Below are positions 405 to 1,192 of a stretch of 27,671 nucleotides of DNA, one piece after another; the stretch's first letter is position 1; every line of letters begins with the position of its first letter. Below the pieces are notes generated by a model. It was not told the origin of the DNA and searched no databases. It worked only from the letters and a program-made list of their open reading frames with translations. Position numbers and translations under genes: made by a program. The DNA is from Escherichia coli. Its GTDB lineage: Bacteria; Pseudomonadota; Gammaproteobacteria; Enterobacterales; Enterobacteriaceae. The stretch lies in assembly GCF_003334315.1 (NCBI RefSeq), contig NZ_QOWR01000062.1. One strand, 5' to 3'.

Positions 405-959
405 ATGTCTGATGTTTTACGCCCATACCGCGATCTTTTTCCACAAATAGGTCAGCGCGTAATGATCGACGATAGCAGTGTCGTGATTGGTGACGTTCGT
501 CTGGCTGATGATGTGGGGATCTGGCCGCTCGTTGTGATTCGTGGAGATGTACATTATGTACAGATCGGAGCACGCACCAATATCCAGGATGGCAGTATGT
601 TGCATGTCACTCATAAATCCTCGTACAACCCAGATGGCAACCCATTAACCATTGGCGAAGATGTCACTGTTGGTCACAAGGTGATGCTCCACGGCTGCAC
701 CATTGGCAATCGAGTTTTGGTTGGGATGGGCTCAATTTTACTTGATGGCGCAATAGTAGAAGATGATGTGATGATTGGTGCGGGTAGTCTGGTCCCACAA
801 AATAAACGGCTGGAGAGCGGATATCTGTATCTCGGTAGCCCCGTCAAACAGATCCGCCCGTTAAGTGATGAAGAGAAGGCTGGGTTACGCTATTCCGCGA
901 ATAATTACGTGAAATGGAAGGACGAATATCTGGATCAGGGTAACCAGACCCAGCCTTGA
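405..959 (+). CDS. yrdA: YrdA, hexapeptide-repeat (gamma-carbonic-anhydrase-like) protein
   Basis: ORF-track frame 189..959; true start taken at ATG 405 (MSDVLRPYRDLF...), giving 184 aa; upstream part of the track ORF overlaps the rrn promoters. Confidence 0.9.
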   Translation: MSDVLRPYRDLFPQIGQRVMIDDSSVVIGDVRLADDVGIWPLVVIRGDVHYVQIGARTNIQDGSMLHVTHKSSYNPDGNPLTIGEDVTVGHKVMLHGCTIGNRVLVGMGSILLDGAIVEDDVMIGAGSLVPQNKRLESGYLYLGSPVKQIRPLSDEEKAGLRYSANNYVKWKDEYLDQGNQTQP

Positions 960-1192
960 TCATCTTCACTTTGTTCCTGAATTAAGTTTTCCGCTTCTTC
1001 TTCCAGGTCCCAGCGATGCTGACGAAAACTCGCTAACCACTGTTCTGGCGTATCTCCAGTAAAGCGATACGCCAGACTCTCGCCAGAGATCGCGCATGTC
1101 AGTTGCATACCATTCACGAGAGCGGGAAAACATACACATTTTTTATTCTCGTCCCACTCTTCCCTGTCCGGAAACTGGATGGCCTGATTCAC
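935..1192 (-). CDS. yrdB: YrdB, DUF1488 family protein
   Basis: 85-aa [21 protein letters not shown]...; start overlaps aroE stop by 4 nt and its 3' end overlaps the yrdA 3' end by 25 nt (convergent). Confidence 0.9.

Follow-up and report, generated by a model that had tools for sequence, protein, structure and literature searches.

Background

Pairs of convergent genes that overlap at their 3' ends and are conserved between species are known in prokaryotes (Rogozin et al. 2002, summarised in PMC2478687; Lillo & Krakauer 2007, PMC2174442). In E. coli, 58 convergent overlaps have been counted, with an intrinsic terminator predicted for just 20% of the participating genes; the phase that sets third codon position against third codon position (123:213) accounts for 18% of the convergent overlaps of at least 5 nt, and 4 nt is the commonest overlap length in prokaryotes (PMC2174442). 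Published surveys have also found that many long overlaps are mis-annotations.

A second described class is defined on the level of transcripts. The ExcludonFinder study counts yrdA-yrdB among 165 convergent "excludons" that recur in half or more of 58 MG1655 transcriptomes (PMC12288877).

We hereby analyze the junction between yrdA and yrdB in a stretch of 27,671 nt of E. coli DNA (contig NZ_QOWR01000062.1), called the window in what follows, combining gene models, comparison between species, structure prediction, searches for nucleic-acid elements and published transcript data. The reading that we favour, to which we give a probability of about 0.72, is that of a genuine and deeply conserved tail-to-tail overlap of protein-coding genes with no dedicated regulatory device.

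The yrdA-yrdB locus

The window covers the E. coli region adjoining rrnD, and the features at the junction are collected in Table 1. The product of yrdA is a gamma-carbonic-anhydrase-like hexapeptide-repeat protein (Hexapep Pfam matches); beyond yrdB the minus strand carries aroE and then tsaC, yrdD, smg and dprA. The 25 nt that yrdA and yrdB had been predicted to share at their 3' ends are borne out by the open reading frames, by translation and by the RefSeq coordinates, and the RefSeq/PGAP annotation of an E. coli chromosome has the same geometry, with the end of yrdA 25 nt inside yrdB and 4 nt shared by yrdB and aroE. The region was found in all of the 5,426 complete E. coli genomes searched (5,426/5,426).

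Table 1. Features at and around the yrdA-yrdB junction, in window coordinates.
Feature	Position	Strand	Description	Basis
yrdA CDS	405-959	+	184 aa; stop TGA 957-959	ORF listing, direct translation, RefSeq
yrdB CDS	935-1192	-	85 aa, DUF1488; GTG start 1190-1192; stop TGA 935-937 (TCA on + strand)	ORF listing, translation
yrdA/yrdB dual-coding overlap	935-959	both	25 nt	translation
aroE CDS	1189-2007	-	272 aa, shikimate dehydrogenase; upstream of yrdB, same operon direction	ORFs, RefSeq, translation
GTGA	1189-1192	-	aroE stop (TGA) and yrdB start (GTG) share 4 nt	sequence reading, translation
AGGAGG, Shine-Dalgarno-like	1203-1208	-	10 nt upstream of yrdB GTG, inside aroE end	read from sequence
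Imperfect dyad GATCAGGGT / GCCTTGATC	933-961	none	includes two GATC sites	

Both genes encode real proteins. YrdA is nearly identical to the PDB entry 3TIO ("Protein YrdA"), with R6H as the single difference, and is close to the Salmonella structure 3R3R; the E. coli and Salmonella crystal constructs both include the full tail. YrdB is a full-length DUF1488 protein, in which PF07369 covers residues 5-84, that is, the whole model; 590 homologues were detected, mostly of 85 aa, and a distant one has a solved structure (2GPI). In both frames the codon pattern is normal, positions 1 and 2 being conserved and position 3 variable. With two real genes, shared 3' ends that are defined by stop codons and conservation in other species, yrdA and yrdB form a convergent overlapping protein-coding pair. 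The overlap stands under any gene model, because both of its borders are stop codons and the choice of start codon is irrelevant to them; a shorter yrdA or yrdB, which the original prediction had held out as a counter-argument, is inapplicable to 3' ends fixed in this way.

At its 5' end yrdB overlaps the stop codon of aroE. The length claimed for this overlap, 4 nt, holds, but the tetranucleotide is GTGA here and not of the ATGA type, yrdB starting with GTG. An RTGA junction occurs in 85 of 88 related loci (ATGA in 45, GTGA in 40). The 4-nt RTGA overlap, together with a ribosome-binding site inside aroE, gives aroE-yrdB the layout of a putative translationally coupled pair.

Other features of the region were recorded on the way. 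On the minus strand the start of smg and the end of dprA (smf) overlap by 29 nt on the same strand (3605-3633), and the 29-nt dprA/smg overlap is also present in the gene calls of the Buttiauxella, Pantoea and Edaphovirga contigs. A sub-threshold Rfam match to Ysr197, a Yersinia sRNA, covers 53-295 on the minus strand (90.5 bits; gathering score 167); it falls in the stretch that separates rrsD from yrdA, in which the promoters and leader of rrnD would be expected, and a promoter-like site lies in the same region at 143-116 (minus strand). Insertion sequences occur in these genes in some E. coli strains (records NZ_CP184016.1 and NZ_CP123963.1): in strain 1380 yrdA is truncated by an IS66-family element, and in strain L6-21 the matched stretch contains an IS1 and two DUF1488 features are annotated apart from each other, so that yrdB is probably split. 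From these IS insertions in some E. coli strains, neither yrdA nor yrdB appears to be essential.

Conservation of the junction

Conservation was assessed with one genome per species over 80 Enterobacteriaceae loci. The overlap is exactly 25 nt long in 76 of the 80 species, which answers the question, raised in the original prediction, of whether it is kept across the family; it is conserved far more than by chance. The departures from 25 nt come from changes at stop codons. In Siccibacter turicensis the TGA of yrdA is lost and the gene reads on for five codons, giving an overlap of 40 nt. A TAA comes earlier in Phytobacter and in a Kosakonia strain, where the overlap is 19 nt, and in Intestinirhabdus a TAA stands instead at the same site. 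The yrdA gene of Kluyvera genomosp. 3 is interrupted by an early stop, which may be a sequencing error or the mark of a pseudogene.

For the outgroups, YrdB homologues from an exhaustive protein search were located on their contigs and named from cluster members. The arrangement of aroE-yrdB facing yrdA is kept in all the distant loci examined, out to Vibrio, and the junction itself varies: the overlap is 25 nt in Buttiauxella and in Rouxiella, 46 nt in Pantoea stewartii, 13 nt in Edaphovirga and 4 nt (TTAA) in Vibrio fortis, and the genes are separated by a gap of 11 nt in Limnobaculum and likewise of 11 nt in Plesiomonas. All these values are 1 modulo 3, which means that the relative frame of the two genes is kept. 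In one Vibrio locus (L094, on an ENA contig) an indel of 1 nt close to the yrdA stop lengthens the gene and brings the overlap to 57 nt, which may reflect a sequencing error or a pseudogene.

The distance between the two protein cores was defined as the DNA between the codon for G80 of YrdB and the codon for L176 of YrdA. This core spacing is 20 nt in Enterobacteriaceae, Pantoea and Edaphovirga, 23 nt in Rouxiella, 35 nt in Limnobaculum, 41 nt in Vibrio and 47 nt in Plesiomonas. Read from eight outgroup loci, the order of events would be as follows: the aroE-yrdB operon would have faced yrdA since before the split of Vibrio and Enterobacterales; the spacing between the cores would have shrunk to 20 nt in the lineage leading to Enterobacteriaceae, Erwiniaceae and part of Yersiniaceae; after this compaction each frame would have run into the other up to the next in-frame stop; and the overlap would have frozen at 25 nt in Enterobacteriaceae. 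We infer that later differences in overlap length reflect the position of the next in-frame stop.

Coding constraints in the overlap

The overlap encodes (D177)-Q-G-N-Q-T-Q-P-stop of YrdA and, on the opposite strand, (D78)-Q-G-W-V-W-L-P-stop of YrdB. Codon positions 1, 2 and 3 of yrdA face positions 2, 1 and 3 of yrdB, and the third positions of the two genes coincide, wobble on wobble. This phase leaves each gene freest for synonymous change.

The two proteins differ in how much their shared segment matters. In YrdB the stretch G80-W-V-W-L is conserved, and G80 shows no variation among homologues with identities as low as 35%, even in lineages that do not have this overlap. The AlphaFold model of YrdB has a mean pLDDT of 93.4, with residues 81-83 in a beta-strand and a pLDDT of 96 for the last block; the overlap residues are confidently predicted to form a structured beta-strand of the DUF1488 domain. 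In YrdA the last invariant columns are Y175/L176, and the tails beyond differ in sequence and are 2 to 13 residues long; PDB homologues of YrdA cease to align at residues 170-180. The AlphaFold model of YrdA has a helix at 155-178 followed by pLDDT values below 50, residues 180-184 included, and hints that the tail may be disordered, in a model whose overall mean is only 62.7 (alignment of 14 sequences).

The alternation between N180 and S180 in YrdA is the exact counterpart of the synonymous alternation between TTR and CTN codons at Leu84 of YrdB. From these comparisons we conclude that yrdB dictates the shared sequence and that the last eight residues of YrdA look largely like a passenger tail. 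Influence in the reverse direction also exists: the synonymous change of Pro184 of yrdA from CCY to CCG changes Q79 of YrdB to H.

Constraint from the two stop codons

The phase requires that, opposite the TGA of either gene, the partner reads NNT-CAR. The sites that complete the stops follow this rule without exception in 75 species, position 935 being always T and position 959 always A. The codons that these two sites close vary widely, codon 177 of YrdA occurring in 9 forms and codon 78 of YrdB in 11, and all of them are NNT; the background share of T-ending codons for the amino acids concerned is 36-38%. Among the other third positions of both genes only 2 of 245 are invariant in the 75 species. 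Since the stops stay at the invariant 935 and 959 in spite of the varied NNT codons, both TGA positions are under purifying selection, and each of them freezes the otherwise free wobble base of the partner. Selection on the stops also fixes the Gln codon (CAR) in each gene, and because the stop codons fix NNT-CAR, both proteins have a Gln seven residues from their end.

The remaining shared wobble sites that are free to vary (941, 947, 953 and 956) have an entropy of 1.3-1.7 bits, against 1.2-1.4 bits in the flanks. They vary as freely as the flanks do and show no constraint beyond coding.

The same rule gives the junction its symmetric look. The dyad at 933-961 arises because both proteins read D-Q-G and each stop is the reverse complement of the T|CA of the partner, and the appearance of GATCAGGG...CCTTGATC as a dyad is a consequence of the stop-codon constraint acting on both strands. 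Two GATC (Dam) sites, at 933-936 and 958-961, bracket the overlap, and each of them spans one stop codon. They are there because GAT-CAR codons occur on both strands, and species with a codon other than GAT at 177 or 78 have lost them.

Transcription and antisense RNA

The original prediction had placed the overlap between a highly transcribed neighbourhood and the aroE operon, and had proposed antisense pairing of the two mRNAs or transcriptional interference. The neighbourhood in question is rrnD, whose 16S rRNA gene lies on the strand opposite to yrdA; its transcription runs away from that gene and adds nothing to the convergent junction. Full-length yrdA and yrdB mRNAs must be complementary over at least 25 nt because their coding sequences overlap, and the pair stands in the excludon list; a regulatory role is unsupported, as the evidence below indicates. 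The mscL frame is also in the window (9193-9603, plus strand), and mscL-arfA is another convergent pair in the same list (PMC12288877).

The two genes leave no space for a terminator and the scan predicts none within either of them, so each transcript would have to end inside its partner. GC skew on the plus strand is -0.33 at 960-1039, so that the RNA past the yrdA stop is C-rich and G-poor, and it is +0.33 to +0.42 at 720-839, so that the minus-strand RNA past the yrdB stop is C-rich. C-rich, G-poor antisense RNA is the general composition that favours Rho. The transcripts would most likely end by Rho acting on untranslated C-rich antisense RNA, or by polymerase collision, and the resulting 3' complementarity of at least 25 bp would in our judgement be a tolerated by-product.

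An alternative is that the two genes regulate each other as an excludon: the paired 3' ends would be cut by RNase III or the polymerases would collide, one unit going up as the other goes down, and the overlap would be conserved because of this reciprocal regulation. The pair does belong to the core MG1655 excludome (PMC12288877), although such an entry is nearly automatic once coding sequences overlap. No terminator separates the genes, and the tight junction has been kept from Vibrio to E. coli; yet its length shifts between families (13, 25 and 46 nt, and a gap of 11 nt) while synteny is kept, and the free wobble sites of the overlap drift as fast as the flanks. A selected regulatory overlap would likewise keep its length strictly. 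RNase III processes duplexes of about 25 bp at minimum, and the overlap would give a duplex of about that size.

Antisense RNA at this locus has been the subject of published work. Huang et al. captured with p19 the duplexes cut by RNase III, and in the available part of their data these lie at MG1655 3427352-3427385 (window ~499-532), in the 5' part of yrdA, with an antisense start at MG1655 3427399, which is window position 546; the next duplex listed after yrdA is at MG1655 3428397, in aroE, and none of those listed falls at the junction (MG1655 3427788-3427812) or under yrdB (PMC7373196). Inside yrdA there is an antisense promoter, with a -10 element CATAAT at 553-558 on the minus strand, and when Dornenburg et al. 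mutated the antisense promoter inside yrdA, in the one experiment on antisense control of this gene, the expression of yrdA::lacZ was unchanged (PMC2912661). In the available parts of the supplements to the SMRT-Cappable-seq and transcriptional-interference papers, yrdA, yrdB and aroE are not mentioned.

Taken with the free shared wobble sites and with a junction that has neither a terminator nor a covarying hairpin, these data make it unlikely both that excludon-type regulation operates here and that it is the reason for the conservation of the overlap. A more specific proposal, that the 25-nt length itself has been selected as a minimal duplex of RNase III size or as a collision site, inversely coupling YrdA to the tsaC-aroE-yrdB operon across Enterobacteriaceae, seems to us distinctly improbable.

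Search for a nucleic-acid element at the junction

The overlap might also hide a functional element, such as a bidirectional terminator, an RNase site or a protein-binding dyad formed by GATCAGGG...CCTTGATC. The predicted fold contains a stem of 9 bp, G-U pairs included, two GATC sites lie at the ends of the dyad, and it has been published that some E. coli genes in convergent overlaps carry terminators within their coding sequence. A pattern scan near 935-959, however, called no terminator-like site on either strand and there is no T-run; the G+C-rich hairpin with A-tract and T-tract that marks a bidirectional intrinsic terminator is absent from the junction, and the RNA folds of the two strands are no better than those of shuffled sequences (z = -0.02 and -0.67). 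Over 75 species only 935-939/955-959 stay paired, five pairs that are forced by the coding of stop, Gln and Gly, whereas 940:954 is A.C in 60 of the 75, and the pair counts in the dyad over these species reveal no compensatory change or covariation. The loss of the flanking GATC sites upon a change of codon 177 or 78 also speaks against an element, and an Rfam E-value search of 1-2400 gave nothing at the overlap. A terminator or hairpin at the junction is rejected on the pattern scan, the shuffled folds and the pair counts, any hidden element is very improbable, and the dyad appears to be a by-product of coding, not a selected hairpin.

Within the yrdB coding sequence there is a perfect 11-bp inverted repeat, TCTGGCGTATC ... 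GATACGCCAGA, at 1044-1054 / 1066-1076 with a loop of 11 nt, which is unexpected by chance in 551 nt. As a possible end point of the yrdA transcript this repeat (1044-1076) was set aside: no T-run accompanies it, and outside Escherichia it is not kept, since only 6 of 79 species have 10-11 Watson-Crick pairs.

Finally, the possibility that the overlap is an annotation artefact, one frame being unreal or shorter, can be discarded for practical purposes despite the many mis-annotated long overlaps in published surveys, because both ends are stops, unaffected by where translation begins, crystal structures exist for YrdA, YrdB has the full DUF1488 domain, the 2GPI structure and hundreds of 85-aa orthologues, and both frames show normal codon-position conservation.

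Discussion

Protein-coding and stop-codon constraints fully explain the comparative data at this junction. The overlap was already on record, both as annotation and in a catalogue, and within its known class it is ordinary, if unusually well conserved. What is added here is a documented case of how a tail-to-tail overlap is held in place: the structured C-terminus of one gene product dictates the dispensable tail of its partner, and each stop freezes a wobble base of the other gene. Beyond this clean example its importance is small, since the overlap can be read off the standard annotation and the pair figures among the overlapping transcripts published before. If the overlap did regulate, a carbonic-anhydrase-like protein would have a conserved connection to an operon that encodes shikimate and tRNA-modification enzymes; nothing here suggests such regulation.

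At its upstream end yrdB resembles the known RTGA type of translational coupling, in that the stop of aroE and the start of yrdB share 4 nt on the same strand and a Shine-Dalgarno sequence lies inside aroE. It differs from the ATGA form named earlier by its GTG start and GTGA tetranucleotide, and the coupling itself is putative.

The convergent, overlapping transcripts of yrdA and yrdB, listed from RNA-seq coverage, resemble an excludon (Sesto et al. 2013; PMC12288877). Classical excludons involve an overlap of long UTRs, mutually exclusive expression and functionally opposed genes, whereas the overlap of yrdA and yrdB lies within the coding sequences.

The closest likeness is to the known tail-to-tail pairs: yrdA and yrdB are bona fide genes, their overlap is bounded by stops and can be explained by stop mutation and extension, and it is widely conserved. 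Unlike most convergent overlaps, this pair uses the 123:213 phase (18% of those of at least 5 nt, PMC2174442); and while most long convergent overlaps have been reported as conserved in very close species only, that of yrdA and yrdB is fixed to the nucleotide across the family.
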